Below, piece by piece: positions 3,563-64,000 of a stretch of 64,000 bases of DNA. The translations under genes and the position numbers were made by a program. Origin of the DNA: Vermamoeba vermiformis (lineage: Eukaryota); assembly GCA_045837725.1 (NCBI GenBank), contig JBEWZL010000011.1, positions 186,001 to 250,000 of the forward strand, read 5' to 3'. A model generated the notes under the pieces. It was not told the origin of the DNA, ran no database searches, and was given only the letters and a program-made list of their open reading frames with translations. Position 1 is the stretch's first letter. Every line of letters begins with the position of its first letter.

Positions 3563-4993
3563 ATGAGCCACAAAAGCATGTCGAAGTTATCGCTAGAAGA
3601 TCGAACAGAAACTCGAAAAACCTTGCTGTCGTTGTTGAAGAGCAACAGAGACAATTTTCATATTGAATTTGAAGGCTTTTTTAGTAATCATTTGTCGCAC
3701 GCGCTGACTGCGTTGTATCATTTGGGGGGTGAGTTTTCTCGATCAGATGAGATCGTGCAACTAATCATGATTACCATTCTTTCATTAGCACCCGCAAGCA
3801 GACTGCACGAATTTTATGACAAGTATACGAAGAAGCTTGAACCAAAGCAGCCATCAAATAATTTAATTAACAAAAATAATTGGAACTTGTACACGGGACT
3901 TGATGCGTAAGACCGGTTCGTCATATATGACCCCATATATATTGACAATAATTTAGGCATTATTCGGATTATTTGGATTTCTTCTTAGATGAGATCAAGA
4001 ACAAAGGTCGCCAGTACTTAGTATGTTGTATCCATTTCCACTTTAGTATCTAACGCGTTATCAATAGATTAATGAATACTTCCCCGCGTTAAGCCACGGC
4101 CTGGCGGGAGGTGCTTTCCATGGTCTGATTACCCTTGGGTACGCACTCGAAGCGGACTGTGACGAGACTGTAGCGCAAGGAATGGCATATCTAGCAGTCG
4201 TTCACCTTCCTCTTGGTACCTTAGCTTCGCAGGTGTGTAGTAAACGATTAGTAATTGCAATGCAATAGTTAATGACACGTGTCACATAGGGAGTAAAGAA
4301 GGATCCGCTTCAAATCCTCAAGGAAGTCAAAGAGCGCCCAGAGTTGAGTTTATCGGCACTATTTGATGAATACCACAAAGAGCACAACAATCCACCGGGC
4401 TTTCAAACACGGATGAAGATTCTTCGCGACAAATACGGATCCTCTGTACTCAAAGAGTTTGACCTGTACTTGGACGAGAGTGGCAACGAAGAGTACGTGC
4501 AAGAACTACTTAAGACACTATCGCAAATCACGTGCGAAGGCTTTGCCAACAGTGGCTATCGAGACTTCTTCATGCTGCACGGAGTCACCAGCTATCGTTC
4601 GCTGAAGATGGTGTTGAACAACTTGAACAGAACGAGCGACAAGATCATCGCTCTGAAGCACTACTGGAGGTCAGTACAAGTTAGACATATGTTCGAGTCA
4701 ATTACTCACCCAGTGCTTTAAGAGCGTTCGTGTGCGCGTACGTGGCTCAAGGCAGCATTGACATCTTTATTCCCGAGAAGTTCTACAATCTGCCGCTGTC
4801 TTGGCCCAAGATCATCAAACCAGCTATCAAGAACGACGAAGAGCACCTGATTAAGATAGTGTACGTGTGCAAGCGAGAGGAAGAGGAGTACGGCAAGGTA
4901 CTCGATCGAGATCTGTACAGAGACGTCGCAGCGAAGGCGTTAGCGCTTGTAGAAATGTATGGCTTCGAATTTAATGCTTGGGGTGATGAATAA
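3563..4993 (+). CDS. Questin oxidase-like (DUF4243/HypA-type) oxidoreductase, multi-exon
   Basis: His-containing motifs across exons: FSNHLSHALTALYHLG, GGAFHGLITLGYALE, DFFMLHGVTS, DEEHLIKIVY. Confidence 0.8.
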
Positions 4994-5081: not shown

Positions 5082-5417
5082 ATGAGCACAAAAGCATCAA
5101 AGGTTGCCAACAAGGCAAATAATAATAAGAAGGAAACAAAGGCTACGGTAGAAAAACCTGTGACTAAATCTGAAACAGAAGATGACAGATCAAAGCAAAA
5201 GAAGGCAACAGAAAAATCAGATAATAATACCAAAAATGCTACGAACAAAAGTACGGATAATGAAGGCAATAACGATCAACAAACCGAGTCTGGAAGCATA
5301 TTCTCCCCTCGTGATCAAACAATTCTGCTGATAGTTTTCCTTGCCTTCACTTTGGTTGTATGGACCATTGCACCATTCCAAGCACAGAACAATCCAAACG
5401 ATGTAGCAGCGCAATAA
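5082..5417 (+). CDS. Small low-complexity protein with one C-terminal transmembrane helix
   Basis: ATG at 5082; K/N/T-rich body, then ILLIVFLAFTLVVWTIAPF. Confidence 0.55.
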   Translation: MSTKASKVANKANNNKKETKATVEKPVTKSETEDDRSKQKKATEKSDNNTKNATNKSTDNEGNNDQQTESGSIFSPRDQTILLIVFLAFTLVVWTIAPFQAQNNPNDVAAQ

Positions 5418-14057: not shown

Positions 14058-17000
14058 TCACTTGTTGCTTGCAATATTATCGCCGGAGAGAGTCTGTTTT
14101 AATTCTTTCTTGATAGGCGCGAGAGGGGAGGAAGGATTATCGCGGTTTGCTAAATACAAACGTTTTAACGCATTGAATATAATCATACCGTATTTAGGTG
14201 TCTTCCATTCTGGCTCTACGTATGGCTCTGTTTGATCTGTCGTACTGACAGTCGGATTCGCAGCGATATTAGATTGATTATTATTATTATCACTAACGTT
14301 AGTATTGTTATTATTTGTATTATCATTAAAATCGTCTACTATTTCAGTGTCATCAACGGGTGTTTTGTCTTCAATTTGCTTCGTGTTAAATGACGCTTTT
14401 GTATAATCAAAATTGTCGTTTTTATGAACGGAAATAAATTCGGTAGGTGGTGTAACTGACGTGCATAATTTCAAACGATCAACGTTAATATAATGGTCGA
14501 GAATTTCTCCGTCTGGATTTGCAATTACGTATGTGAGCGGAGATCTTCGCGCGACAACGGTATAAGGACCTGACCAGGGTAAAGAGAATTTAGGAATTTG
14601 ACCTGGCACGCTTCGCGGCAGCCAATAAAACCAAACACGGTCGCCAATTTTAAATTGTGAGTCGCGACGATATTCATTATAATATTCTTTCATTCTATTT
14701 TGAGTCGCAACGATATTTTCGGTAATATATTTACGAGCAATATCTCTACCTTTAATAATTTCATCTAACACTTCATTATTGTTTAAATTTTCGTTTAAAT
14801 CTGGTGCGTCAGGAAAAATTCGGTCTATAATTTGATCAGAGTCATACCCGTATAAAGCAAAGAAAGGACTATAACCAATAGTTGGATGTTTTGCTTTGCG
14901 GTACGCGTTTTGAACGTATTTTAAATAAATATCCCACTCGCCTTGATTATCGTGGACGTATACTGATAAAAGCGTCGCGAGCGTATGATTAAATCTTTCA
15001 ACAAGTCCGTCTGTTTGTGGGTGATAAGTTGTTGTAAATGACGGTTTTGTTTTAAAATATTGTAAGATCTCTTCGCGAAATTTGTTTCTAAAACTCGATC
15101 CGCGATCCGAAAGAACTCTAAGCGGTGGATTATGCTCAATAACAACGTAATCTATATACGCTTTAGCTACTGATTTCGCACTAATGTCCTTTAACGGGAC
15201 ACAAATTGGAAATCGCGTTAAATAATCGCAAAATACGATAATATATCTATAACCACGTTTAGTTAACGGCAACGGACCAAGAATATCCATGCCGATCAAT
15301 TCCCACGGTTTTGAGACCTTAATTGGTTTTAAATAACCCGCTTTATAAACGCGAGGAGTCTTTCGTGCAATGCATTTAACACACGAGCGTTTAAATTTCT
15401 CTGGAATAGCGAGACATAATTTCGCGTGTGAAGGATTATGATCTTGATATTTTAATTTATATAATAGTCCGTTTTGCATATATAGATCCGAGCATTTACG
15501 TAAAAATTCAATCCCCGATCTGTGTGGTACGCAATCGCGTTCAAAGTAATCTATATATAATTTTAATTTAGGATCGTTTAATTGTTCTTGTCTGAATTTA
15601 TCCGGATTCGACGCAAAATTAAATTCGAGAGTAGATTCGATTGTCATCGAATTAATTGTGAAATTTGGAAGTCTAGATAGAGAATCTGCATTACCGTTTT
15701 TACGACCAGGTTTAGCACGAACTGTGAAGTTGTAATCCGCGAGAGCCATTTTCCAACGAGCAACCTTGCCGTTCATCGCTCTGAATGAGTCCATAAATTC
15801 GAGAGATTTATGATCTGTCTCTATTATAAAAGGTTGACCGTATAAATAAGATCTAAAATGTTTTATAGCTTCGACAGCTGCGAGGCATTCCCGTTCAGTC
15901 GCCGACGATTTAGCTTCACTATCCGTTAATTTGCGCGACCAATACGCAACAGGGTGGTCTTTGCCTTTCTCATCACATTGTGAGAGTACGGCACCGATTC
16001 CAAAAGCGGATGCGTCGACTTGAAGAATAAACGGTTTGTTAAAATCAGGATAATGCATAATTGGTTGACTTATTAAGCACGTTTTTAATCTATTGAATGC
16101 TGCAGAGCATTCTGTAGTCCATTCGAAAGTATTATTTTTCTTTAATAAATCCGTTAATGGGCGAGCTTTCTGCGCGAAATTACGAACGAATCTACGATAA
16201 TAATTACAAATACCCAAAAATGAGCGCACTTGAGTGACACTTTCTTTAATGCGGTCTTCATGCCAACTCGAAATTGCTCTAATTTTATCCGGGTCTGGTT
16301 TAATTCCTTTTTCGCTAATAATATGCCCGAGATAATTTGTTTCATAATAAGCGAATCTACATTTTGACGGTTTAACTTTTAGATTTGATCCACGGAGGCG
16401 ATCGAATACTTCGCGTAATCTACTCATGTGCTCGTCGAAAGTGCGCGAGAAAACTAATATATCATCTATGTAGACAAGACACGTTTTCCAATTTAATCCT
16501 GCTAGTGTCACGTTCATTAATCTTTGAAAAGTAGCAGGTGCGTTAGTCAAACCAAATGGCATGACGTTAAATTCGTATAAACCCGAATGTGTTGTAAAAG
16601 CAGTCTTTTCTTTGTCTTCTTCGCGAATTGGAATTTGATAATATCCAGAAATTAGATCTAACGTTGTAAAATATTTCATGTGCGACAAATGATTCAACGC
16701 GTCATCGATCCTCGGAAGAGGATATACATCCTTCTTTGTTACAGCATTTAATTTACGATAGTCAATGCAAAAACGTTTTGTTCCGTCTTTCTTTTTCACT
16801 AATAAGACAGGCGACGACCACGGAGAACTAGATGGTCGTATTTGTTGATTGTCTAACATGCGTTGGACAAATTCATCTATTTCTTTACGCTCTGACGGCG
16901 ATAATTTAGAGAATGGTCTAGACCTAACAGGGCCGTCTGTAACTTGAATTTCGTGTTTTACTTTATCCGTTGTAGTTTTTAATTCAGACGAGAATACGTC

Positions 17001-18010
17001 TTCGAATTCTTTAATGAATTCTTTTAGTGCCTCGATTTCGTTGCGACTTAATTTCGGATTAATTTGAGGGGACTGTGACGCAGGAAGGGAGACACGATCC
17101 TGTTGATGTACTTTTTCCATCGCGAGGATAACCTTAGTCCTTTCCGCATTCCCACGGAACATTGGATTCGAGAGACTTTGCGATGTTACGGGAGGGGTAT
17201 TAGCGGACGCATCATCATCTGAATCCGTTGTTCTAGTCCTATTCGTTCTATTCTCTGCCGAATTGTCGTCTAGAATAATTTCAAAACCATATTGATCTAG
17301 ACATACACTAAAGTTTCGCGTGGCTCGCGCTACTAGACTACTGTGCAAAACTAAAGTGTTTCGGTTCTCAGAGTTAGTCACGAACACATCGACAGTGTTG
17401 TTCGGACGTACAACCCCCATCTGTCTTCCAACAACTGCGCGATGCCGAGAATCAGACATCTCGATCAACAAATTGTCACCTACTTTCAAGTTGTTCTCCT
17501 TACTAAATTTACATCGAATAATAATTCCTGAGTGACTTGGCACTTTAATCGTACTACATGAATAGAGCGCAATTTCAAATTCTTTATCATTACTACAATC
17601 AATCATATTAATCTCGTTTGCTGTCCACGCAACTTTGTTCGCAATCATTAACTCAGCTTTAGCGGTAGTGAGCGTGTCCATTCCAAGTAATAAATCGAAT
17701 CTGAAATTCTCGATATATAATGCTGTAACAGGGATCGATACGTCATTGATCTCAATATTAAATTGTGCGTATTTGTTCGCATATATAATCTCAGAGTTTG
17801 CAACTCGTAATGTATATTGTCTCGTGTTGTATAATATGATATTGGGATACTTATTAATGAAATTGTTATTGATAACAGAGACTGATGCTCCAGTATCAAT
17901 TAATGCTTGAATATTAGTGTTATATAATTTGACCGTTACGAAAGGTAATTTCGTGGACTGAATTAAATTAACGAGCAGCTCAGAGTCCACGTCTAACTGC
18001 TCTGATTGCC
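14058..18010 (-). CDS. pol: Pol polyprotein (aspartic protease, RT, RNase H, integrase)
   Basis: LIDTGAS; RFCIDYRKLN; YIDD; QVDAS; integrase MDILG, SDRG, LVERFN; GPY module. Frame is open back to the slippery site. Confidence 0.95.
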
Positions 18011-18017
18011 ATTTCCC
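17952..18017 (-). promoter_or_regulatory. -1 programmed ribosomal frameshift signal (slippery heptamer + H-type pseudoknot)
   Basis: G GGA AAT at 18017-18011, 8-nt spacer, stem GAGCAG/CTGCTC, loop CGTGGAC complementary to downstream GTCCACG; pol is in the -1 frame. Confidence 0.85.
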
Positions 18018-19216
18018 TGCCTCTTTCCATTGTTGTTTTGTTGTTGATTTGGGTTACCGGTAAAGTTCGGCATCATGTTATTATTATACGTTTGGTTTGG
18101 ATTGCCGTTAAAGTTAGGATTCATGTTTGGTAACGCGTAAAATGGTTGAAACGGAAGGGCTTGAGGAAGTACGAAAGGGAGGTATTGATTTTGATTTTGA
18201 GGCATTTGTTGTTGTTGATTATTGTTATTGTTATATCGACGACGATTGAAAGAACCTCGTTGGTTACCACGGTTATCATTGTATTGTTGTGAATAATTTG
18301 GTTTCCCACGTTGAGGAAACGGTCTACCTCGGTTGGGGTTACCTCGAAAATTTGGCTTACCACGAGTAGAAATGAAATTTACGTCATCAATTGGATTGTT
18401 ATTATTTTGAGTAGTCTCGGTATCATTTACCTGAGTTACAGCATTCACAGTTCCAGTCGCGTTCGTTTTCGCAGCTTTCGGTTTGATGATAATACTCCAT
18501 GGCAAGTTGACCATTGCGCTTGAGAGTCGCGAGTAATCTGTCATCATCGAGACCATGTTCGTACGTACGTGCGTGCTCACGTGTTCTGGGAGGGCATCAA
18601 GCAAATACTTGATCTTGTCGGGATCTGACGATGGGTACGATGCAAAATGAGAGTTGAAGCGAGTGTAGAACTGATTAAAAGTCTCTTTTTCAGGGTCCCA
18701 TCTCTCGTTCGATATTTCGCTTTGCTTGACCATGTTGCTTTCAGGAGCGATGTAGTTTGTCGCAAGCCATTTAGCAGCTGATACCATGTCTTGTTTGAAC
18801 TCTTGTGATGCTCCATTCCATGCTTTCAAAGGGCCACCAGCCAATTTACGACCAAATATGAGCAACTGTTCCTTCGCTGATAACTTGTGAAATTGGACAA
18901 GGCTGTAGAACGATTCCAACCATGTGGTGCTATCCTTTTGTTTAACCATATCGAACGGTTTGCAATTGGTGTCTGCGATAGCGTCCTTCAATCGACGATT
19001 GCCAGCCAATTTATCGTTGAGCGTTTTGACTTCGGTTTTAAGTTGGTTGTTTTCGCTTTGGATGCGAGTAATATCGTTTCTTAATTGAGCATTTTCTTGA
19101 CGTACCAATTGGTGTAAATTATACAAGTCCATGTATTGTTTTCGATAATCTTCCAGATTTGATGCAGATGCGGGAGTACTTTCGCTGGCAATATCAATTT
19201 CTTCGTCTTCAGATAT
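17993..19216 (-). CDS. gag: Gag (N-terminus lost at the DNA-transposon junction)
   Basis: Coiled coil, retrotransposon capsid-like core (WLESF...LAGGPLKAW...ETFNQFYTRF), N/Q/R-rich tail ending QGNGNQSS*. Confidence 0.85.
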   Translation of the reverse strand: MSEDEEIDIASESTPASASNLEDYRKQYMDLYNLHQLVRQENAQLRNDITRIQSENNQLKTEVKTLNDKLAGNRRLKDAIADTNCKPFDMVKQKDSTTWLESFYSLVQFHKLSAKEQLLIFGRKLAGGPLKAWNGASQEFKQDMVSAAKWLATNYIAPESNMVKQSEISNERWDPEKETFNQFYTRFNSHFASYPSSDPDKIKYLLDALPEHVSTHVRTNMVSMMTDYSRLSSAMVNLPWSIIIKPKAAKTNATGTVNAVTQVNDTETTQNNNNPIDDVNFISTRGKPNFRGNPNRGRPFPQRGKPNYSQQYNDNRGNQRGSFNRRRYNNNNNQQQQMPQNQNQYLPFVLPQALPFQPFYALPNMNPNFNGNPNQTYNNNMMPNFTGNPNQQQNNNGKRQGNGNQSS

Positions 19217-19240
19217 GGCAAGGTCCGCGAGTCTCAGTCC
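19217..19240 (+). repeat. Left TIR
   Basis: GGCAAGGTCCGCGAGTCTCAGTCC preceded by ATAT (19213-19216). Confidence 0.9.
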
Positions 19241-19313
19241 AAATGATCGGAGAAATTGCATTTGGCAAATTGAATTTTTCATACCGTTTATTATAATTTG
19301 TAGTATGACATAA

Positions 19314-21368
19314 TTAAATATTTTGTTCTTCAAACTCTTCTACCAAATCATCACATTGCAAGTCTGATTCGGGAATCCACGAGTTAAATGAGTTGTCGTA
19401 ACCAGCCCATTTTACTTCGTACTGAACTTGGTTCTTAACTTTTCGTTTGCCAACAATGCATTCCACTTCAAATTCTTCACCTTCAGATCTTTCATCTTCG
19501 GTGGGAGCACTTGTTCCTTTTGGATGGTTGACTCCCACCACAGTTGTATGTCTTTCAATCCATTCTCCAACAGTATTCTGATTTGTGCACTTGTCAAATT
19601 GAAACTTTAAGCAGTGAGTACAGACGCAAGGCCATCTACGCATGTAAAGCTTGTTTGGTTGTCTTGAAAACACAAAGTCATAGCATGATTTAATGCCAGA
19701 AACAGTTGAAACATCTTCTTCAGTATCATTGTATTGAATATTTAGGACAGTTGAAGAACCTCCTTCAATTGTTGACCAATAAGCTGCTAAATCTTCTGGG
19801 GTGTCAATAAATCCATCTTCTTTCAGAACATGAATACGGGCTTTCTTTTTCAACAGTGCACCACGTCCATCACACTCTCCTTTTCCATGGTAAGCAGGGT
19901 CGATAATCCAGCGTAAATGAAGACCAAGAGTTGAGAAAACCTTGGTTCCCCAGTGCATTGAGCGACGATTCTTGAAGTGTTGCATTCCTCCATCAGTTAG
20001 TAGAATGCAGTGGCAAACATCATTGCCTAAATCTAACAGTGGAAGAAGTGCAGTAAATGCCTTTTGGAATACCACAGATGTGTGGTATAGGTAAGGTGAA
20101 ACAAACGCGTGGTACTTTTTGATGATGTCTGGCTGTTCTCTGGTACTTAATGCACTGTGGTACCAAATGGTTGCAATCAGGACAGTAGTTTGTCGCCTTC
20201 CATAAAATGCATTGCCAACTTCAATTGAACTAATGTGAGAGTAGTTCATTAGAAAGTCCCAGCGCATCATGACTGTATCCATTGGAAGCTGTGCTTTCAA
20301 TGTTTTGATTGTTGACTTCTGCCATTCAACATGAAGCTTGTGGTCTTTTGCTTTGGAGGTAGCCTCTTTGTAGCCCTGAAGGAATTGTTGCCTTGTACTG
20401 TTGTGCGAAACATGTACCATCTGATTGGGTGCATACTTGTCTCGATCATTAAGAAGTGCTTTTGAAGGAATAGGAACTATCCAGTTCTCAGCAGCTTGAG
20501 ATTGAAATTCAACTGGACAGTCATCAACAGAACAGGTGCAATCAGGTGTGCAGTCAGCACCATGATTACAAGCAGAACAGTAGAGACACAGGCACTGACA
20601 TCTATCATGCCACTGACGTCGTTTCTGCTGGAGCATCTTTGTCCAATGATGAGCAGAGGAGCAGGTTGGGCACAAACCAGAGTAGTAACGTTGCAAGTAA
20701 ACACACTTTGGAACTAAGGAGTAAAAGGTAGAACAGCCAACTCCATTTGGGCAATCAGTCTATTGACAATGTTAGTAAAAGTAGAAAATGGACGCGCGGC
20801 GCGTTGACGGAATGGGTACCTTGTACTGCTGAAAAAGTTCACCAATTGAGGAGTCACGATAATGCATAACTTGGAAGCCCCAAGAACCATTTGCTTCACG
20901 TTGGCGAACAACATTGGATGAATTGGCAGAGGCACGGCAGTGATCCAAAATCCAGTTTGTAACAAGAGAGGGTTCGACTGGGAGCCTGCTAGCTTTGTAT
21001 TGGGTCTTTGTAACAAACTTGTTGTGTTTGCCGGTTAATAAACTGTCACGAAGCTTTTCACGGGCATCCAATAGAGCTCTGGTAATGCTGCGTGTTGAAA
21101 TGCCAAGAACTTCTGCCTGAGCTTTGTCTGTTTCGTCTGACAACATGGTGCCCAAACTGCCACGAAAGAAGCCAGAAACTCGTTCTGATTTGGCGGCAAC
21201 GCGAAGAGCTTGTGAGTAATTGGAAAGCAAATTATGCTTTGTCGAAGAGCAACTGAGGACGTGCAAATGTGGTGCAATTCGTTGGTGCTTGAATACTTGA
21301 AGGAGCTCTGGTTCAATGCGCTCTGGCGGAATTTGAGAGAAAGTAGCAAGGAGTAGGTGTTGGTACAT
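19314..21368 (-). CDS. Sola2-like DDD transposase with Cys-rich region and C-terminal chromodomain
   Basis: Exons 21368-20820 and 20759-19314 (60-bp intron with TACTAAC); motifs WDFLMNY, LTDGGMQHFKN, YHGKGECDGRG; chromodomain EFEVECIVGKR...YEVKWAGYDNSFNSWIPESDL. An additional 5' exon is possible. Confidence 0.82.
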
Positions 21369-23670
21369 CTGTGTTATTGTTCGTGAAGGAGTACTTGAAA
21401 TAAATTAGTAAAGGGAGAGTGAACGCGCCGCGCGTTCATAGTTTTTATTAATTTTATTATGAAAAAAAAAATAAAAAGCAGTTGTTCTTTCATTATTTTC
21501 AATTTTTCAAACAGTGCACCACAAATGAAAAAATCTACTCCTACACCAGAGTCGAGCAAGGCTTTGCTCGATAAATGGCTCACAAACGAAGGCAATCCTA
21601 CTTCAGTCCCGTTGGCTCAAATGACTGTGCGAGGTAAAGAAAAATATTAATTTTAAAAATCACAAACGCGCTGCGCTTTCACGCCAAAGAGCTGATTATT
21701 ATTCACAAGTGTTGTAGTATTTTTAAGCAATATTGTTACCTTTTTTTGAACGCGCAGCGCGTCGATAAAAAATGCATAATTTTTGGACGCGCGGCGCGTT
21801 CATTGTTGTTCTCACTGCTCTAATAATTTTCAATAGGAACATACCGCACTGTTACTGAAGAAGGAAAAGCCACGATTAAGAACAACATTATTGCGCAAGG
21901 AGCTGGCGACTTCATGAATGGTTTAAATCGTACGGAGCCATTTCTTGTTCAACTGCTGCCGCCCGACGAAAAAACGAAGAAGAAAAGCAAGCAACCCGAG
22001 TACCGAATTCTTGGCGGCAACCATCGATACGAGATATTCAAGGAAATGTAAGTTAATAATGGTGTTGGTTTTTCACACAATACTAAAACAGCAATAGGGG
22101 TGTTACGGAATGGCCTTGCTACATTCTTGCTGCTACGGTTGACGATGTAAAAATGACAGAGTCGGAGACTGAGCAATTGGCTGGCATGGACAACGGCAAA
22201 TCCCAGTACGGAATCGCAAAGGCTGGCTGGTTTGAATAGTTCGAGAAGCTAAACCGCTATCTGCAATTTCCCGGCATCGTCGTCACTAAGGGAAAACGGA
22301 CAACTACGAACTGGGAGGCAATCTATGCGCTGTCTGGTAATCACGAAGGGCTATCCGTCAACACCGCGAAAAAGCTAGCAACTGCACGCACAAACACGGT
22401 GCAGGCAACTCAGGAGAAGAAGTTCGAAAAAAACCCTTTGTTCATTCGCATGCAAGCCCTACACGCCAAGTACGGGTACAATCTGCCAATCAAAATGAAG
22501 ATGTTCACCGAAGAGAAGAGGTTTTGGCAAATGGACACGTTTCAACAGGTGGAGGCAGTAAATCTGTTCATTGAATGCATCGAACAGAACAAGTGCAAAG
22601 GAACTGGAACTGGTAAGTCATTCAAAAATGTCTTTCTTTATGAACGCGCCGCGCGTCAACAAAAACTTTCTTTGTTTGAACAAAAAATTGTACTTTTTTC
22701 TGAACGCGCGGCGCGTTGACAACACTACATTGTTTATGAACGCGCGGCGCGTCGATAAAACTTAGCTTTTTATGAATAAAAAATTGGGAATTTTTCTGAA
22801 CGCGCGGCGCGTCGACAAATATTTGAATTTTTTGTACGAAAATTGCCTATCTTTATGAACGCGCCGCGCGTTGACAAAAACACTTTGTTTTTTTATAACA
22901 ATTCTCATTCACTTGTAGATTGGAGTTCAATGATTGACAGTGTTCTCCGACGTGCTAAAATCGTCGATTATATTGGCAAAGCACAACCTCAGGCTGATTT
23001 GCTTGAGGAGTATACTGAAGCTGTTGGTCGTGGCGAGTTTCCTTGGTTGGAAGAAGCGTGCACGGATGCACTAGATAACGCAGCAATGCAGCACCTTTTG
23101 AAATGCCTTGAGAAGGGCACCGCTGCTAAATCTGTAAAAGCACCTGTTCCTGTGTTAGATGGGCCGGTACGAATACGTTCACTCATACAACTTTACATTC
23201 TAACTTTTTTCACAGAAATCACCCTCTGCCAAGAAACCGCAGTCTTCCAAGAAGGACGAGCTTCTCAAGGAGAGAATCGATGCACATATCGATTCAGAAA
23301 ATGTTGAAGCCAGACCACCAGAAGAAGTTGATGCAAGCCAAAGTGAAGCTGAACCTGACGATCTTGCTGATAAGAGACCTTCGCGGCAAAAACATACAAC
23401 TAAGGCTGCTGACGAAAACACGGAGGCCGCAGAAGCCACTGTGGACAAGCCTGTTAAGGAGAAGAATTCTGCGGAGGCAGCTGGTGACAAGCCTGCTAAA
23501 GGCAAAGATGCAGCACAGGCTACTGGTGACAAATCTGCTGCTAATAAGCCTGCTAAAGGCAAGAATGCACAGGCAGCTGTCACTGATCAAGAACCAAGCG
23601 AAAAAGGATCTCCCAAGAATACACCTAAGAAAGGTGATTCCCCTCCTGTAAGCGTGAACGCGCCGCGCGT
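20792..23670. repeat. Dispersed palindrome ACGCGC-N-GCGCGT, 11 copies
   Basis: Cores start at 20792, 21423, 21666 (degenerate), 21750, 21787, 22644, 22704, 22740, 22800, 22859, 23658; all intronic or intergenic. Confidence 0.92.
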
Positions 23671-24729
23671 TTTGCCCTACGTATCTAATTTAATGTTTTA
23701 GGATGCCACACTGTGGAAAGTTTCTGCCACAGAGCAACTTACCACTCATTTCAATGCTCATTACAATGTTGTTCCTGAATTTGGCTTGCAGCTTCCAATT
23801 GTGACGAAGGCTGACTTGGTCTTTTATAACTGCACTGGAAGAATTTCTAACGCACATTGGAATGCAATGATGAAGTCCGTCCTCGAAAATGGCAGGGTTG
23901 TGATTATTGCTGAGCCAGCAGACTCCCCAACTATTTTCACTGGTCTTTCCGCCAAGGAAAATACTTTGGAGTTCGACTTCAAGTACACTGGCGTGATGTC
24001 ATATCCTCCTTCGCGGGTCCTTCAAAAAGACCGCCCTGCAGCAACTTGCTGGGACTTCTACTTTCTCAAGGTGAAAGGTGGCCAGCCACACTTTAATGAT
24101 GAAGATTTGGATGGGGCACGCCACAGAAGTCAATACTGGTCTCATGGTACCTTCAAAGCACCAACACAGGAAGAGCACTTGCACGCAAGAGCTTCCACTG
24201 CTGCACCTCCTATGTATCCAAGGCAGCCTCCAATTGAAATGTTTGAGTTTGTTATTCGGGTAAGTTTCTTTTTTTCACCACCTTTCCTTTGCTGACTAAT
24301 TGATAGGCCTTTGCTCCGCCTGCCCCTTTTGTCATTGTTTTCAACGAGTGCTCGGCAGCATCTTACATTGCCTGCGTCAATATGACAGCCACCTACCTTG
24401 GTTTCATGCTTACTGACAACAAGGAGGTTGCATGCCAACATGTTTCAAGGTTCATTTCCTCACGCTTGTCCAGCCAAGAAGATGCCACAGCCCTTCAAAA
24501 CACTTTGTTTGAGATTGTTACAAACAAAGTGCAAGAAGGTGATGAAGATGATGAGCCACTGGGACTGCCTGACACTCCTGCTAAGATGGCTGTGGATGAG
24601 GATTTGCCTGAGACCCCTTATGTGCCTGGCATCATGGATGAAACCCCAGCAGCTTCAAAGAAGCGCAAACGTGATGAACCTTCGTCACCTACAAACTTCA
24701 CCAAGAAGTCCAAATCTAATGCCAAGTAG
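21525..24729 (+). pseudogene. ParB/Srx-like N-terminal domain + low-complexity linker + degenerate DNA methyltransferase-like domain; one premature TAG
   Basis: Six exons; YRILGGNHRYEIF, EWPCYIL, EQLAGMDN; C-terminal ADLVFYN...VLENGRVVII...YPRQPPIEMFEFVIRAFAPPAPFVIVF...YLGF; TAG at 22237-22239 with the frame open on both sides. Confidence 0.65.
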
Positions 24730-24930
24730 GGCATTTGACTTGTAAAACTTTTTGCCTGTAGCAGGTTTTGTTTTACAATAAATATATCTTTTTCATACAA
24801 AATATTCTATTTCGTAAACTTTGTTTTTGCTCAAGTACGCTCTGTTTGTTTTTAACATACTATTTATTTAATTTAGTTGTATGAATTATTACAGTTTCGG
24901 AACATTTCTTCGAAAAATTGAATTTCTTCA

Positions 24931-24954
24931 GGACTGAGACTCGTGGACCTTGCC
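24931..24954 (-). repeat. Right TIR
   Basis: GGACTGAGACTCGTGGACCTTGCC followed by ATAT (24955-24958). Confidence 0.9.
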
Positions 24955-25302
24955 ATATTTTAATTTTTTTTGCACTTTGCCGAATCCTTTCCAAAATCAA
25001 TTTTTAAGCTTGTAACAGCATATTTACATGTATTAAAGCTATTATTTTATTATTCTGATCATCTTTTTCTACCAAAGCCTGTCATCAGCATTGTCATCAG
25101 CCCTCTCATCAGTTTTTGTCATCGGCACCCAAATTTTCGCAAAATTATTTCGGATTTACCTTGACTTTCTCATTGTTTTTGATCATTTGGGCATAATTAG
25201 CCTCCTCTGAAGTATATTTGGGCAAATTTTGAGACGCGCTGCCCTCGGCCTAGCGGCCTCGGACAGCGCCGAAGATCCCATTGTATAATCAATCACTAAT
25301 TA

Positions 25303-28300
25303 AAGCAAGTTGTATAGTGCAGCATTGGTGAAACAACTGGGAACCTTGACATTTTGCAACATCCATTGGCAAACGGGCTGTCCAATTGACTTGGAAATCA
25401 CCTGTCCGCCGTTTAGTGCTGGTAGTGCCATAGCTGGAGTGTAGTAAGTCTAGCTAATATATTTTACAATGTAAAATTTTGCTTACCAGCCTTCAGCTTT
25501 AATTCACGCCCATACTCGCCAGAACACACTGCACAGCTGGTGTTATCAATGAAGACTAAGCTTGCCTCAAAGATTTGTCTTCATGCCACATTAGTGAAAG
25601 CTACAGATGGTTCCCTTCAGTTTGGAATAACCGAAGGTCAGCATCGCCTTTCCACTCTTGCAACTCTCTATGCTAGCCACCCCCAAATTGCCAATTCCAC
25701 CTTGATTCTGCTTCAAGTTTGTCGAACAAAAGAGGTATATACATATCAATAGCATCCTTCTTATCCACCTGTGTTTATTAATTCATCACAGGACATCTTA
25801 GAGCTAACAAGCCAGCAAGGTGAAGCAGACTCAAATGCTTTAAGGGTGACTTGGGTGGATTCAGTATTCAATATTTGTCGGTTATTGCAAACCAACCCCA
25901 ATACTCACAACTGGACAACTACAGACTTCAGAGTTGCATTGGGAGCACCTTTTGAGAAGCAACAGGCCTACTGTAAGTGAAATGCATTCGGTTCACCAAC
26001 TATTTACTAACTGGAACAGTTAAATACTTGAAGATTGCAAAAGGCCTTGGAGAAGAAGCTTTCAGATATATTTTTAATTGTGTTCGAAAGCGTGCAATAG
26101 CCGAAATGAAGGGGTTACCAACAGAAGAGCCTTCATTCTCGTATAGCAAGCTAGAAACCCTCATCAAGCATTCACATGACACTCAGCTTAAATTAGTGCT
26201 TCAGAGTGAGTAGAATTGCTAATTACTATAATTACAGCTCTGTGATAACTGGTGCACTATTCAATACTGACTCTGACAGGAAATAATTTTGAACAAATTG
26301 GCCTATGGGAGAAACACGTTGCTGAAACACTCAAATCTGCCAAACAACACGAAAAACATGTGACAGTGTTCAAACAAGAAGTTGAGAGCTTAATGAAGGA
26401 GACAGATATCCAAAAACAATTAATACTCGAAATGGGTCTGCAATGGCTGACTGGTCCCAGTTTTAGTTCAGCTGAGCTTGATGACAAAGATATAACACGC
26501 AGGTTAAGTGTCATCAAGCAGATTGGCCAAATATTGAAGTTCACCGAGCATTCTGACTTCAGTGCAACAGACTTTCTACTGATTGACATCTGCTCTGGAG
26601 CTATTGATGATGAGGACCTTAGTAAACACATGAACAGAGCTGCTAGACTCGGTTGCTGGGGACTTTGTAAGCAGTGATTATTTATAACGACATGGTGCTA
26701 ACAAATGCAATAGGGATGCAAACAAAGGGCTTTGAGTTACCTAAGCTGGATGGTCTTATTCTTGTTCCTTTGTGCATTCTAGAAAACACTTTGTTTTCAC
26801 TATTTGCACCTCCAACAATAACAACAAGCTGTATCTTGAGCGTATTTGCTGCCCTCATGTACAAAGTAAGCTAATTCTATCTGCAAATCATTCTAACTGT
26901 TGCTTAGTTGACAGCTTCTGAGAGTTCTTTCAAAACAGCTGATCATGAAAGATTTATATTTAATGCAGCATTGGCATCATATATTTACTTCACAAAGCAA
27001 GGTACAGGTTTCTTTTTTTGCAATCACTGACTAATCACCTGTTCAGAATCAATTTGCGTATGGGATCTGTTTCCGGTCTCTTACCCAAGCTTGACTCGCT
27101 TCCGAACTGCCTACCAGGCGAATATCCAGTATAATGCACTTTGGAAATCCTCTGAACTTCAAATTGCTTTTGCCGCAAGCATTCAGGATGGATTCTCAAC
27201 ATTAGGGCCTCCACCTAAACGGTCCTTAGAAGTGCTGACTGCTGATGAGGTTAACAGGCTGGTAACAACAGTGCCTGCAGAGTCTGCTTTGCCAGAATCA
27301 GTTACTTCAGGAATTCCTCTGCACTACACCCAACCAACGAAGATAAAGTTACAACTAAAGCACAAATATGCACTCATGAATATTGAACATCAACTGCTCC
27401 CATATTTGAAGGATTTCAGCAAAGCAGACGCCATCTTTTCAGGGTTGCTTGAAAAGAGAAGCTTTAAACATAGTGTAGATGCAAGCAGCACACACCTTTA
27501 TTTTTTACCATACATCACCCTTGGTATGAATAGAATAATTACATGCCACTGTTACTCACCGTACAATTAAGAGCGCCAAAATATTGAAAGGAAGCTGCAA
27601 CATCATCTCGAATTGGCCTCCAAGTCATTATTTGAATGCACTCCGGAGGATTTTAAACTTTCGAACTGTTTGCTTAGAAATTTTCAGCACTGCCACAAAT
27701 GGGACAACATGTATATTTATCATGAAACAGTCTTTGGATCTTTGGGCTTTCATTTCGACTCCTTGGTAAGTTAAGTAAGGTTATGGAGCTAAGTATTAAC
27801 AAATTTCAAGGGTACTCCTGCAGTAAATATCTTGTTAGGACCTCCAGGATCAATGAAAATCTGGTACTTCATTGATGCAACACCTGAGAACTTGACTCGC
27901 TTTAGAAAATGTAAGTAGTATTTATCTTCTACTCTTTTCTAATGTTGGTCTGCATTCAGTGTGCGTACGGTCTTCTTCAAAAATTCAGGACATATGGATT
28001 ACACCTGAAACCCTAACCAAGAACGGAGTGACATTTCGTGTAGTGCATCAACAATGTGGAGACATGCTGATTGTTCCACCACTGCAATGGCATTGTGCTG
28101 TCTCAGCCCCCAATATCCCGGTAATTGTATTCATTAAACAAAAAAAAATAACTTACCACAGCACTAGGTTTCTCCAATTACTACAGGCATTGCATATACA
28201 ATCCTCCCCCTTCCTTGCTTACAACAAGCCATTGAGTTATACTTCAATTACACTACAACTCCAATCCCTTTGGAAATCATTTTGGGAGAGATGATTAACA

Positions 28301-29768
28301 AATCGTTCTTCAGCTCTTTATCACTTGAATATCAAAAAAGTTTAAAAGTTCAACTCACAAGAATAGTCAACAAATTCTCAAGCCTCAAAGATGCAAAGTT
28401 CAATACCCCACCATCGAGTAGACAATGTACAATCTGTGGTCGAGACCTTCCTTACTTCTTTGCAACGTGCAAGAAACTAGCTCTAAAATGCGACACAAGC
28501 AAGAAGCTGTTTTGCTGCTTTGTATGCTACCATCTTGATGTTTTTTCATCGTGTGGTCATGGGTTCACGTTATACAGATGTCACTATTCTGATACAATTT
28601 ACGAGCAACTAGAAAGGTATGTGTGTCCCAATATCAATCTCTATAATAATTTAATTTAGACTTATCGTGCAATTACACCCTGTAACTGAAGAAGGACAGT
28701 TATCATCAAATGACAATTCAGTTCTACCCAATGAAGCTGAGGCATTACAACATTCCATCATTGTACAAAACTCAGAGCTTGAAATCAATGAAACAAATGA
28801 ATTGCATCAATCTGTTTTCCCACAACTCGTTGCTGAAAATGAGGAACAAACTTCAAACACACTTGGCACTGTAAATGACCAATTCAAAAAGGTACAATTA
28901 ACTTACATAAAAATATCACTACTAATCATAATACAAGTACTGTCTCCACATTCTACAATGGACAAAGAGTTTATCTCCAGAATATTATCAGCTATTAGAT
29001 CTAGAACACCCTGTCATGCATCACTATGGAAACTTGGAGGCGTACTTGGTGTCAAACTTCAAATTACTCAGTGTTGGTTACAACAGTGCATCAACAGATA
29101 GCATTAAGCTTGACCAAACATACAAAACAATCACACAGCAGTTTTTTTCGTATGTTTACAAAAACAATAATGTATCATTTTAACATATCTAGCAGTGATA
29201 AGCCTTCAGATATTTTGCTGAAGAAGATGCAAATCATTAACGACACCTACTTCAAGGTGAAAAACCCTCATCAATACTTTGAGAACATTGAACTATTCGC
29301 CCAAAAGTTTAATTCCAGCTTTTTTGGATCACCAATGGATAATCAGGCCTTACACATTGATAGTGCCTGCTTTTTAGCAACAAAAAAAGCATTTGGACGA
29401 CTCAACAACACCCAAAAACAATATTTCATTCAACAGTAAGTACTTCTGGACTTGAAGTCAAAATTTCCTCTAATTGTTTATTTAGAGCTGCCCCAATGTT
29501 TGCTATGAGAGCAAAAAGTCTTGCACCACACCTGATTTTTATTCATGCAGCTCTTAATGTAGCTAACGTGCTATTGCCTTCCACCACCTTTGAAGAATTC
29601 ATGGTGTTTACCAAGAAGAAGAACACATACACTGTTTTTCATGCTGCTTGGGAAGGAGCTCAAGTTTTTGTGTTGCCACCAATGCAAAATTCCTTTGGGG
29701 GCCTTTCTTCTGCTGATGTCATTAGCTTAGCAGACAAATGTCTATCAGACTTCTTTAAAGATATTTAA
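25303..29768 (+). CDS. Large multi-exon ParB-like + JmjC (KDM4/5/6-like) + Cys/His zinc-finger protein, 5' end apparently missing
   Basis: NSRPYSPEHTAQLVLSM...ITEGQHRL; JmjC YIYHETVFGSLGFHFDSLGTPAVNILLG..MKIWYFI...HQQCGDMLIVPPLQWHCAVS; then CTICGRD...CKK...CCFVCYH...CGH. Confidence 0.72.
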
Positions 29769-29921
29769 CATAGCATATACTTCTTAACAAGCTTTATTAT
29801 ATATAATAAATACTTTTAGCAAAAACAACATCTTTGTTTACCTTTTGATCTTTGCTAAAAATTTACCACATTTTTATCAAAGACAATTTGTCTAAGCATT
29901 GAGAAATCCTTGTGGCCCTAG

Positions 29922-30223
29922 CAGAGTTAATAAATCTTTCAAACTCCATTATAGGGCAATTCACGACAGATGGAGGGCCAATCAAACATTGTTCCAAAGC
30001 CCAACCAAACAATTAGTGGTAAATTGGATTGTTGTGGCATGGAATCGAGTCGAACAGAATATAGTTAAAAAGAGCTTTAAGGTCTGTGGTATATCAAACG
30101 ACCTCAACGGAAGCGAAGAAAGTGAAGTGGCTGTCAAATTTCATCGCATGTTGTCATAAATTGTACAATAAATCCAGATTTTTCCAAACTGTTTATTTTT
30201 CCGACTTATTCGGCAGTTTACAG
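29922..30223 (+). mobile_element. 3' remnant of a pogo/Tigger-type (DDE_1) transposon
   Basis: VNKSFK...VVNWIVVAWNRV..NIVKKSFKVCGISNDLNGSEE, then a TIR-like end CCGACTTATTCGGCAGTTTACAG followed by TA. Confidence 0.7.
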
Positions 30224-45371: not shown

Positions 45372-47823
45372 TTACATTTGTACAGATAGCAATAGCCATT
45401 GATTACCGCGCAACACTTCGCTCAGTTGTTTGGAGCGAGGGATCTCGTCGTGACTAGCTTCGTTCACAATGAGAACTTCAGGGTCCACGCGTGTAGCTAA
45501 CTGCTGTTTTGACACCTCAATGCCCGATCTGATCTCAATCTGTCTTTGCAAATCTTCAAGACGGTCAGCGCCTGAGATATCAATCTCGACTGTCATAGGT
45601 TTAAGCTTGGGCATGTACATCCAGTTCTTGACGCGTGCTTTGAATGACTCGATAGTCTCTTCAACGATCACCGTGGAACTCTTCGCTAGGAGGTACCTGG
45701 CGGTCTTAGAACAGTTCTGGGCGTTGATCTTCTCTTCATTTTGAGCAACGGCATCCACTGAAGTGTCGACTTCTTCAAGGTGAATGATATCTCCGGTGAC
45801 TAGTTGATATTCAGAGAGCATCATATTGTCGTTAAGTAACGCGTTCAATTTGAAGCTAGTTTCTTCTTCGATCAACAGCAACTTTCCGACAGGCACGTTT
45901 CGCACGCCAAACTCATTTGATGAGACCAATTGTTGTTTCAATTGTCTTAAATTGATAGAAGAAGGGAAGCTGTAGTCGCCAAGATCAATCGGTTTCTGTT
46001 GGATGGGATCCCATCGCTTCAAAGTCAACACGACGAAGTTCTCGTCGTACTTGACAGTTCGCTTAGCTTGTTGCAGATAAAGGTGGTTCTTGCGTTGGCC
46101 AATGATTTCGACGATCATAGTATCGCGTTTGATGCCTTGGATCATGCGGGCAGGTCTTTTGGTGCCGTTGTTACGGTATGAAACCGCTTGAATGGATAAC
46201 TCTCCACAAGTCCAACGAACCTTTGTGGATTTGGCTTCCTCTTCTTGATTCACGATGGGCTCTAGTCGCTTCAAAATACTATCAATAGAAGTAAATCTAT
46301 CGACGCTCATGACGATCGGTTCGAGGGCAGAATTGTTTCGCAGGAACTGAAATTAAATAATTAGTAACTAATTCGAGAAATCATGACGCGATTCCTGAAC
46401 GGTTGTCGAAATTGAATTTGAACAATTTGGGCGTTTGGATTAAGTTGCCTTTTTTGGTTAAGTTTTAAAGTTCAGTCGCATGACCTAACACGTTACACGG
46501 GTGGGTTTCACGAATAAAGAGTTTGACTCCGAACTTACCGTAACGTCAACTTGACCTCCAATAATCTCGAGACTAGATCCTAGATGCGTTGCCATTTCAG
46601 CCAACAATGAGATGTGTCTAATATCCAACTGCTTATTTCCAATCAGCTCCACTTTTCTTAAGCGAGTAGAACGGCCGAGTCGAACATTTACGTTAATCCA
46701 AGTCATGAAGAATTTGATGATGTCGTTTGTCAAGGCTGGCAAATTCGAAATTGCCAACGACTCCAATCGTTTGCTGTATTTGAGAATAGTTTGGACGTCT
46801 TCGTTTTGTAACTGTTTGCATTCGTTCAACACGACGGTGCGCATATATTGACACTTGCGCACCAGTTTGCGCACGGCTACTGGAGATATGCCAACGCATG
46901 CCGACAAGTTGATGTACTCCAAAGATGTGGCAACGGGAGATTGCACGAGATAATCGACAAAACTGCCATTTAAGGAAGTGCAGCCGTCTAAATTTAGGCT
47001 CTGTAGGTGCAGTAACTTCGCTAGGTGAGCAAGACCTTCGTCAGTAATGCCATTGCAATTGCGGATGTCGATATGAGAGAGGTTTGGACAAAGCTCCGAA
47101 AGCTCGGCCAATGTTCGGTCGGTAAGATCGAAGCAAGCCGAGAGGTTGATCCCTTCGAGGGTGGGGTTGTTCTTCGCCAATAAGCATACTGACTCATCGC
47201 TGATCATTAGGCCACTTAAGTTGGCCCAGCGCAACTAAAAGAAAGTCCAGTTAATACAAATTTGAATATCCGTGTTTGGTTCGTGAAACGGATGCGGTAT
47301 TTTTGGGTTTGTCTCCGTTTTCAAACACTTTGACAAGGTAAAAACGAGATAAAATTTTGCTTGCTGTGTACTGTATCACAATATCTTTAGTCAATGCGAA
47401 ATCAAGTGAGATCGCGGGTAGCGCGACTCGCAAAAAATAATTTTACACCCACTGAGTGGAAAATCGGAGTACATGAACGATTACTTACCGAATTCTGCGA
47501 TAAATGAGCAAATCTTTGCAAGCCAATGTCGGTAATGAAATTGTTGGATAGATCGAGGTTCTGGATACGTCCAAAATAATGAATATTGCCGTCATTAAGC
47601 TTCTTTAGCTCTCGCATTTTCGCAATAATATTTTCCAACAGCTCAATCGGCAAATTTTGCTTCTCCAGCTCGTGCAAGTTATTAAGGACAATTTCCCCAA
47701 TACAAGCGTCCTGTATTTATGATTAGTGACCTTCATAACAATCACATTTAATATTCCAAAGTCAACTGTAATCATAGGAGACAGATCATCGTCGCTCGTA
47801 CATACTTTTAATGATCTAGACAT
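45372..47823 (-). CDS. Cys-containing LRR protein (AMN1/FBXL-like) with C-terminal ubiquitin-like folds
   Basis: LEGINLSACFDLTD, LSHIDIRNCNGITDEGL, LQSLNLDGCTSL; C-terminal LEDLQRQIEIRSGIEVSKQQL. Confidence 0.75.
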
Positions 47824-61926: not shown

Positions 61927-64000
61927 TTACAAAAGCCATTTTGTTGCTGAAATCTCTCTGAACGTGTGAACGAACCAAGGCGACAACCAACCATCGCCAT
62001 TATGAACGGCAATGTTCCCATTCTCTTCCCACTTCTCCAATTCTAACTTGATGGCACTGTTATGTTTGGCTGTTCTTGTGGACAGTCGGGCAGATGGAAT
62101 ATTTGGACTAAGAACCACAACCAGGTCAGAGCTAAATTGTTTGATAAGACCCTTCAGTTCTTTGTGCAAGCCTGAGGGAGAGATCTGCAAAGGTCATGTC
62201 AACAAATGCTGTAGGTAAAACTTGAGTGTACCTTTGTTTGGCCTGCAACAACGTTACGGCATTGAACAAGCAAGAACTTTTGGAATACTTTTCCTTTGTA
62301 GAGGGGAATGATAACGTTGGTAAAGTTTGATTTTGCTTCATTAATGACAATCAAGTGGTTTTGCTTGATAATGTCCAAGGTTGAGTTAAAGTTGTCAGCG
62401 GTAGGTTCTAACTTGCCAATTAATTTGATGACTCCTTTCCAGCAAGCCTAAAATCAGAGTAAGTAGTCTATAAGATAATGAAATGCATACATCTAATCCA
62501 GCAGTGCCATCAAGTGGTATAAGCTGGCTAAGTGGTACTGCAGGGGATTCTGAAGCTCCAGCAATTAACTTGTACCTCAGCCACAAAGTAACAGCAGCAG
62601 CATCTTCAAGTAAGTCTCCTTTGAATGGCAAATTTGTTGCAGCTCTACTGGAGGTGTGGAATGATTGAACAACAGTTTGAAGTGTTATTGGCACTGGTTC
62701 AAAACTGATACCCAGATTTTGAGGGATGCTGAATTGACTGAAGGAATCAAGTGGTTTCTTTAATCTCTCTGGGTAATAGAAAAATGGCATTGTGTAGTTT
62801 CGAATCAGTGAGACTGGGACTTCAGTTGTTCTTTGCTCAGTGACTGGAATTGAGTATGGAATCAAGGCTCCAGTAGCTTCCAATGTCTCGGATGTGATAG
62901 TTGGTGAGTAGATTTGTGCAATGGATAATTTGGGAAGACACAGTGCTGCTTCAACTTGCAATTTTTCAACATCCTTAATGTCAAACAGTGCTCCAAGACT
63001 AGAGACATTTGGCAATGCTTTCTCAATATCAGCCTTTCTCAAGAACTTCTGTTCGTCTCCTAAACCAACACTAGCATATGCATTTGCTAATCCTGTAGCA
63101 AAATATTCAATGGTTCTTGGCACTCCACAGCAATAAATCCAACGTTTGTAAAGTTGTGCTGAAAGGTCAAAGGACAGTAAATTGTCTGTTGTAGGTTGAT
63201 TTGGTGCATGGGCTAGTTGCTGATTTAACACAAACTGACAGACTTCATTCAAATAGTGGTGACTGAGTAATGGATCCATTGGCATTGAGTAAAGAAGGTT
63301 GTAGGCTGCAGGGTCATTTGCAAGATACAAGCCACCTAATTTGGTGCCTCCCTGCTTGATGGTTAGCATTCACATTACAAGGGAATAAACCTTACCATTG
63401 TCACAAGAAACTTCTTGTTGAGGGTTCTTGCAAAATAGGCAATGTCTCTAAACACCTTATGTGCATTGTTGTTGGTTGTGTATTCATTGGAGTCAGGAAG
63501 AAGGGTCTAGAAAAAAGATCAGGACAATTGTACTAGGAGTTATTGCTTACATGACATTCATCAATGATCAGCAAAGTCAAGTAGTCTTTAGTGTCATAGC
63601 AATCAACATGCACCAAGGGATGATATGGAGGAGAATTTGCATCAACACAACGGTCAAATATTTTGATCAATTCAGGCACAGTTTAAGTCCTTCAAATCTT
63701 TGCAGATTTTGCAGCAGGAAATACTTCAATGCTGAAGACAAACTTCTGTCAGAAAAGAAGTCAATGCAGAGATTTGTACTTACAAGGTTCGCCTGTTGGT
63801 GCTAGCTGAATTGATGCAATGCCATACATCACTCGTTGTTGCATTAGTGTTTGATGGAGTCTCACCAAAAACCGAACTTTAGCTTGAGAAGTCACCTTAG
63901 CTTGTTCCAATTGGCTAATTACTGGTTGTGTTATACGTAGATCGACTGTGAGTTTGTCGTTGAGGAATGAGTGAATGATGGCTGGAGATTGTAAGGCACG
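61927..64000 (-). pseudogene. Crinkler/CR-effector-like NTPase + restriction-endonuclease-fold gene, apparently frameshifted, running off the window
   Basis: Walker B-like LLIIDECH, GVPRTIE, GDLLE, LLQAK; frame breaks around 63680-63900; strong CpG depletion. Confidence 0.55.

Follow-up and report, generated by a model that had tools for sequence, protein, structure and literature searches.

How mobile elements stay expressed in silencing chromatin is largely unknown beyond a few plant cases. In maize, the Spm/En transposon encodes TnpA, which binds repeated motifs and favours loss of methylation at the element's own promoter. Sequence-specific anti-silencing is also known from VANDAL21 of Arabidopsis, for which motif binding by VANC21 and loss of methylation have both been measured (Hosaka et al. 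2017, PMC5735166). Here, we analyse a 64,000-nucleotide stretch of Vermamoeba vermiformis DNA (contig JBEWZL010000011.1, positions 186,001 to 250,000; hereafter the window, numbered from its first letter) with a transposon-like element of 5,756 bp (19208..24963) that carries two divergent genes, one on the minus strand and one, gene A, on the plus strand. As the sections of the VANDAL21 report drawn on here describe it, a short motif lies densely arrayed in the non-coding parts of that DNA transposon (its own introns and upstream regions), has been multiplied through tandem-repeat formation and acts on CG methylation locally in motif-bearing regions (PMC5735166). Our element likewise holds a dense array in its introns and promoter, with five tandem units in one intron, and can be likened to the local effect through CpG content as a proxy alone. 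The motifs themselves differ, ours being a CpG-rich palindrome and that of VANC21 reading YAGTATTAY in one orientation according to the same sections (PMC5735166). Moreover and unlike VANDAL21, the host is no plant, and neither a Mutator or other transposase family in Pfam nor a VANC-like protein was found, so the element does not belong among the VANDALs (Mutator-like, with VANA/VANB/VANC genes) and at most works alike. A comparable likeness may hold for Spm/En, with its transposon-encoded DNA-binding protein, its repeated motifs close to the promoter and a GC-rich control region that sets activity by its methylation state, albeit in a different element family and with our element known from sequence alone. 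What we find is a sharp CpG contrast between the centre of the element, where the palindromes cluster, and its two arms, and this suggests that the centre escapes DNA methylation.

A first-pass annotation of the window had noticed this contrast from hand counts of CpG, and our recount gave exactly the same numbers: 43 in 21841-22620 (an interval free of the motif), 21 in 19381-20700 and 21 in 23701-24720, which amounts to 55, 16 and 21 CpG/kb with observed/expected ratios (o/e) of 1.05, 0.36 and 0.38, respectively (43/780 versus 42/2340 for the two arm intervals, Fisher p = 3e-7). Since GC is alike in the three intervals (0.46, 0.42 and 0.46), the contrast is not a GC effect. Nor is the profile flat after GC correction when 500-bp windows are slid along the element with all ten palindromes masked: CpG o/e is 0.25-0.56 in the left arm (19251-20750), 0.84-1.17 in the centre (21001-22751) and 0.35-0.52 in the right arm (23251-24501), with GC at 0.41-0.47 throughout arms and centre. 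Mean TpG/CpA o/e runs the opposite way and is in excess in both arms (1.43-1.60 left, 1.28-1.46 right) versus 1.06-1.18 in the centre. A two-change-point likelihood fit to the masked sequence placed the edges of the CpG-normal domain at 20899 (2-lnL, i.e. log-likelihood, support 20617-21181) and 23430 (support 23069-23530) with 2*delta lnL = 38.6, and the probability that a C is followed by G in the three fitted segments is, from left to right, 0.080, 0.212 and 0.090 (99/468 C sites in the centre versus 63/740 in the arms, Fisher p = 7e-10). The domain so defined (20899..23430, 2,531 bp; o/e 1.15 with the motifs included) begins and ends inside the genes, as had been claimed: in the minus gene, o/e is 0.71 in exon 1 and 0.27-0.49 in exon 2, and in gene A it goes from 1.40, 0.93 and 0.79 in exons 2, 3 and 4 to 0.47 in exon 5 and 0.38 in exons 6 and beyond. 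Together, these data confirm that the CpG contrast between centre and arms is real and no consequence of GC. By classical criteria a CpG island is longer than 200-500 bp, has an o/e above 0.6 and a GC content of at least 0.5, and is unmethylated; our domain is island-like in length and o/e, while its GC of 0.435 lies below a limit that was devised for vertebrate genomes. An unmethylated, CpG-normal promoter domain amid methylated, CpG-decayed DNA, with decay of 5-methylcytosine (5mC) to T, is also known from vertebrate-type CpG islands and the CpG-rich 5' regions of young retrotransposons (You et al. 2025, PMC12582260). Unlike those islands, however, ours sits inside a mobile element, and the genome around it is CpG-normal: o/e is 1.08 over the window and ~1.18 in ordinary gene-bearing DNA, with CpG-poor DNA limited to repeat-like blocks, namely the two arms, a neighbouring block (25282-30086) and a third one from ~62 kb to the window end. 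Hence, CpG depletion is targeted to particular blocks.

How the arms lost their CpGs is recorded in their codons. Among codons ending in a pyrimidine (Y) and followed by G, C/T is 26/168 in the arms versus 32/48 in the centre (p = 3e-6), whereas before non-G (C|H versus T|H) arms and centre are equal (p = 0.36). In other terms, silent C is found before G at 40% versus 53% otherwise in the centre, and at 13% versus 49% in the arms. Arginine codons (CGN/AGR, 22/17 in the arms versus 23/4 in the centre) and NCG/NCH choices (15/265 versus 17/99) are shifted in the same direction. Because it falls on silent codon junctions, the loss is a matter of mutation rather than of amino-acid composition, and the TpG excess on the coding strand of each arm is the expectation for silent C-to-T changes at such junctions. 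Since the minus gene has stayed open over 664 codons (183 + 481), this decay took place under purifying selection and in no burst. Of the 40 listed differences that set the window apart from contigs of DNA run X1 and metagenome run X3, 20 make or destroy a CpG (a further 205 differences exist), where random transitions would do so in 21% (p = 5e-5); CpG sites are thus hypermutable here. Repeat-induced point mutation (RIP) of the Neurospora type, which is indicated by TpA/ApT above 0.89 and (CpA+TpG)/(ApC+GpT) below 1.03, finds no support in the arms, with values of 0.64-0.72 and 1.42-1.55. Therefore, of the earlier proposal that the arms were methylated and deaminated over time, the decay from CpG to TpG/CpA has held up (TpG/CpA excess, silent-site loss, negative RIP indices and variants at CpG), while the 5mC itself is something we infer; the arm loss looks like 5mC deamination under purifying selection, for which our support is indirect. 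In several unicellular eukaryotes, among them Acanthamoeba, Naegleria and Spizellomyces, 5mC is reported to be confined to transposons (PMC12695648), and marking mobile elements block by block in a genome that is otherwise unmethylated would yield the mosaic CpG profile of our window.

The palindrome ACGCGCNGCGCGT is a CpG-rich motif of 13 bp with two inverted ACGCG cores and at least four CpGs, and none of its ten copies is coding: they sit in introns or the shared promoter. Allowing up to one mismatch, ACGCGCSGCGCGT occurs 10 times in 64 kb, with 0.04 occurrences expected, and each time within 20792-23670. One copy (21423-21435) falls in the 156-bp divergent promoter region between the two start codons (21369..21524), where 19 nt from 21420 form a perfect palindrome, and one (20792-20804) in the one intron of the minus gene (20760..20819, 60 nt, minus strand, GT..AG with TACTAAC, the frame running on across it). 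Gene A holds the others: two in intron 1 (at 21750..21799 within 21636-21836, with a degenerate further copy at ~21667), five as a tandem array (22644..22871; spacing 60, 36, 60 and 59) that fills intron 3 (22614-22918), and an isolated intact one in intron 5 (23658..23670), just beyond the CpG-normal domain. About the promoter, the domain is lopsided and reaches ~0.5 kb to the left, where there is one motif, and ~1.9 kb to the right, where there are eight up to 22871; its extent follows the motifs and not a fixed distance from the promoter. The two motifs at or beyond its edges (20792 and 23658; masked o/e 0.37-0.71 and 0.41-0.48) are both intact, which suggests that the motif itself is selected for or protected, and throughout the window's palindromes the core CpGs are complete (40/40).

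Relatives of the element allow us to ask how old this arrangement is. Our metagenome scan retrieved four true relatives that represent two independent elements (L001/L002 are 99.98% identical, L003/L004 100% over their overlap); L005-L007 match at just 30% over 120 residues and were excluded throughout. Both elements keep the divergent-gene layout and both are dead, L001 through in-frame stops in exon 1 and exon 2 plus a frame change, L003/L004 through a common frame change, to which L004 adds two early stops. L001 and L003 are CpG-poor over their whole contigs (o/e 0.16-0.30), homologous promoter and first exon included. Identity to L001 is 52% in exon 1 of the minus gene and 56-65% in exon 2, and between these two matches L001 has a 59-nt gap, equivalent to the 60-nt intron, with a relic motif at 3614. 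Such relics are found at homologous places in both relatives. The six in L001, between 2207 and 3626, were chosen from 13 loose matches (shuffle mean 7.9) by shared flanks and independent repeat detection; they are compatible with ACGCGT-N-ACGCGT worn at CpG and retain 5/24 core CpGs versus 40/40 in the window. At the window's 20 aligned exon 1 CpG sites, L001 reads TG or CA at 8 (background 17.6%, p = 0.016) and L004 at 6, which is not significant. As relics sit at the same places in the relatives, the motif array is old in this family, and the island belongs to living copies, having been lost with the motifs in dead ones. In this context, P0007, a 63%-identical relative, has a predicted protein that ends D-A-P-R-V just past exon-3 homology, which is what one frame of the palindrome encodes; this suggests intron read-through with an intact palindrome at the same intron position.

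On balance, we favour an explanation that sees the centre as the transposon's own CpG island: hypomethylation in the lineage that propagates would have started from the palindrome cluster or its vicinity. The DNA-transposon-like element (19208-24963) would reside in a eukaryote whose ordinary DNA shows no CpG depletion, and the bodies of both divergent genes would have been CpG-methylated over a long time with 5mC deaminating to T, while selection purged protein-altering changes and left ~60-70% of the arm CpGs gone, mainly at silent codon junctions. At the shared promoter, a ~2.5-kb domain (~20.9-23.4 kb) would have remained unmethylated in the propagating lineage, thereby keeping CpG at the normal genome level, and the palindromes would most likely be sites for a dimeric sequence-specific factor that either drives transcription or excludes methylation. 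Methylation, motif binding and the direction of cause are steps that we infer. An ordinary promoter island is a strong rival to any anti-silencing system here. It supposes a plain bidirectional promoter with the first ~1 kb after each start unmethylated and the palindromes as ordinary host transcription-factor sites, leaving no dedicated anti-silencing function, and it gains from the position of the island exactly on the divergent promoter and 5' exons, from ACGCG cores elsewhere in the window (80/102 lie outside the centre) and from a published pattern in some unicellular eukaryotes, whose gene bodies show a rise of 5mC only past their 5' end (PMC12695648). The first-pass annotation had named the same 5' pattern in motif-free elements as the mark of a plain promoter effect: the one motif-free, CpG-poor unit beside the element (25.3-30.1 kb) has no comparable island, but its 5' junction at 24731-25430 rises to an o/e of 0.83, in part a counter-example. 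Against such a promoter speak a lopsided island in step with the motif distribution, the restriction of the full 13-mer to 20792-23670 and tandem motif units that fill introns, which would be unusual for a simple promoter, and to our minds it is a rather unlikely explanation. Selection among lineages without any hypomethylation, the usual reading for the CpG-rich 5' untranslated region of young mammalian L1 elements, would have the centre methylated like the arms, with only those copies propagating that have a CpG-rich promoter and intact motifs. This agrees with dead relatives that lost centre CpGs along with motifs and with intact motifs at and beyond the island edges; yet silent-junction CpG in the centre is near neutral (see the proportions above), selection on each such site is unlikely, and we consider the scenario improbable.

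Two further scenarios were weighed. A RIP-like, CpG-directed hypermutation might have struck the duplicated arms and spared a centre too divergent between copies to be recognised, and it may draw on fungal-looking introns with TACTAAC branch sites, on run X3, which covers both arms but has no contig over 21703-22636, and on the fact that CpG-directed hypermutation and 5mC deamination are not separable by sequence alone. Against it stand the negative Neurospora-type indices, the long open frame of the minus gene with its mostly silent losses, which indicates slow decay under selection, and the single-version block at 25282-30086, which is equally CpG-poor; together, they make it very improbable. 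Alternatively, the centre may have been replaced recently, by recombination or gene conversion, from a source unexposed to methylation. Its edges are fairly sharp, and in run X1 the centre occurs in two or more versions, with indels at roughly half of the local depth. However, portions of both genes are encoded in the centre, at an identity to L001 in line with the arms (52% versus 56-65%), and motif relics at the same places in relatives speak for an old arrangement, so that such a mosaic origin is hardly credible.

Coming back to an island nucleated by the palindromes, a dedicated anti-silencing system would be plausible. In its full form, the array would be the cis part of a sequence-specific function encoded by the element: a dimeric product would bind ACGCG-NNN-CGCGT and thereby hold 5mC off ~2.5 kb, with the remainder of the element in the methylated, HP1-marked chromatin sought by the chromodomain; we regard this specific version as unlikely. 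Candidate binders would then be the helix-turn-helix end of the chromodomain protein or gene A. A host factor is, however, as good a candidate as an element product because the inverted ACGCG cores appear to resemble the fungal MluI cell-cycle box. Small clusters of ACGCG cores lie at 35658 and at 45487-45839, the latter with three ACGCGT in 350 bp inside a USP7-like reading frame, and these could serve the host as sites for a factor of this kind. Chromodomains are known for heterochromatin targeting, and the HP1-type chromodomain together with repeat-rich, CpG-poor surroundings suggests that the element lives in silent chromatin, where an insulated promoter would be useful. Several observations weigh against an island of the element's own that is nucleated by its motif. 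Exon 1 of the minus gene is merely intermediate in o/e (0.71), and the junction at 24731-25430, with 19 CpG, shows that some 5' or intergenic relief occurs without motifs. With at least four CpGs each, the motifs would survive in any unmethylated domain, whatever its cause. Signals for a binder amount to a sub-threshold helix-turn-helix in exon 1 of the minus gene, and due to an in-frame TAG this copy is unable to supply the gene A product. Relatives with DNA are two independent ones, both dead, and include no clean motif-free controls. In L003, 818 nt past the relic end (1359-2176) are nearly CpG-free (o/e 0-0.1), which would mean that the host DNA or a surrounding repeat is CpG-poor there too. 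Finally, the account presupposes 5mC and a DNA cytosine methyltransferase in this organism.

The element is bounded by inverted repeats of 33 nt, the left one (19208..19240) being complementary to the right one (24931..24963) at 30/33 bases, and inspection by eye recognised no target-site duplication at its ends. The end sequence recurs ~80 nt past the stop codon in both independent relatives (2/2; L001 at 5176-5200, L003 at 1332-1358), where the relics bear CpG-to-TpG changes. Run X1 has short contigs with variants across 17.5-25.28 kb, contains the element in at least two versions, and has one clean contig of 4,805 bp that begins at 25282; depths in X1 are uneven sums and not taken as copy number. 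RNA runs X15 and X17 have reads solely on A/T runs at 21442-21477 and none on a neighbouring kinase gene either, and are thus uninformative on expression.

On the minus strand, exon 1 (20820..21368) is an open frame of 183 codons from the ATG at 21368 and exon 2 (19317..20759) one of 481 codons that makes up the CpG-poor left arm. Exon 1 gives a weak helix-turn-helix signal, with DUF134 (E = 0.004) and an Xre-like helix-turn-helix (E = 0.068) both below the Pfam cut-off, and its profile found nothing useful in PDB. Exon 2 encodes an RNase-H-like core followed by a C-terminal HP1-type chromodomain (Pfam Chromo, E = 1.5e-14; PDB HP1/CBX5, E = 2e-15). Residues D127, D215, E254 and D256 of the core are invariant in 6/6 family sequences, and the order of strands and helices is compatible with an RNase-H fold, albeit in a weak model (predicted local distance difference test, pLDDT, 53.8) whose matches to RNase H, PIWI and endonuclease V reach template-modelling (TM) scores of 0.15-0.19. 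The family is rare (6 proteins among 5.8 billion), and in Pfam it shows the chromodomain alone, in 5/6 members, with no Mutator-like element (MULE) or other transposase family. A protein-atlas lead for the transposase-like core pointed to animal hypothetical proteins, one cluster having DUF7869 on 38% of its members, but it scored below 0.9 and gives the core no superfamily; 'DUF7869' found no mention in the literature searched.

Gene A (21525..~24729, plus strand) comprises, from our exon/intron reading, at least six exons and is interrupted by the TAG at 22237-22239, where the relatives P0007 (Tyr), P0008 (Tyr) and P0009 (Asn) have a sense residue. The TAG reflects a nonsense mutation of this copy or else an error in the assembly; one such codon does not argue for a variant genetic code. 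Gene A matches no Pfam family, and no annotated long protein that covers it was found. Because of a GGNHR-like stretch, gene A was considered as ParB/KorB-like and the palindromes as parS-like. This reading found no support, with no Pfam match, no PDB sequence match and a useless model (pLDDT 46); the one ParB signal was a weak lead in the protein atlas (ParB_N on 18% of one cluster, score 0.86). Scanning 120 stretches of viral contigs for the palindrome gave single chance matches alone and no arrays, the protein scan of viral contigs found none, and the letters of the palindrome were not found in the literature searched.

Directly left of the element lies a gypsy-type gag-pol (14058-19339, minus strand) with open frames of 1,331 and 448 codons, whose region 14058-19207 is CpG-rich (o/e 1.59 versus ~1.18 for the rest of the window). 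Its gag frame extends ~130 nt into the left end of the element; that the element splits this frame was considered and discarded, as no open frame resumes on the far side. Self-comparison of the window revealed no long repeat and no long terminal repeat for the gypsy-like genes anywhere in it. Over 17.5-19.2 kb, CpG is touched in 8/11 among the differences listed from run contigs. To the right, 24972-25280 is motif-free and has a very high summed contig depth (3737 in X1, 19.9 in X3), and is probably a high-copy repeat. Next to it and outside the element, the CpG-poor block 25282..30086 (plus strand, o/e 0.35) contains decayed JmjC-like frames that overlap and are shifted, with a JmjC match at 27896-28291 below the cut-off (E = 8e-4) and no annotated long protein found for the frame. 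It is represented by one clean X1 contig and nearly uncovered in X3, which covers both flanks, and is perhaps a decayed insertion that not all strains carry. The third CpG-poor block (62000-64000; o/e 0.22, TG/CA index 1.5) begins right after a phospholipase-D-like gene and has a 324-codon frame (62395-63369, minus strand) without a Pfam family or similarity to the element; by tblastx, the block is unrelated, so it was rejected as kin of the element.

The element thus offers a compact and testable example of how a mobile element may stay expressed: its CpG-normal domain has sharp bounds and coincides with a defined 13-bp palindrome, and it encodes an HP1-type chromodomain protein. If a promoter effect is all there is, the locus keeps its value as a clean natural record of how 5mC mutagenesis works under purifying selection. 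If, on the other hand, the island is confirmed and the motif is necessary for it, a microbial eukaryote would have independently evolved its own sequence-specific protection against DNA methylation. The element would then be an independent, non-plant counterpart of VANC and a mobile element that makes its own CpG island, and its motif, small and portable, would be a candidate means to keep transgenes free of methylation.

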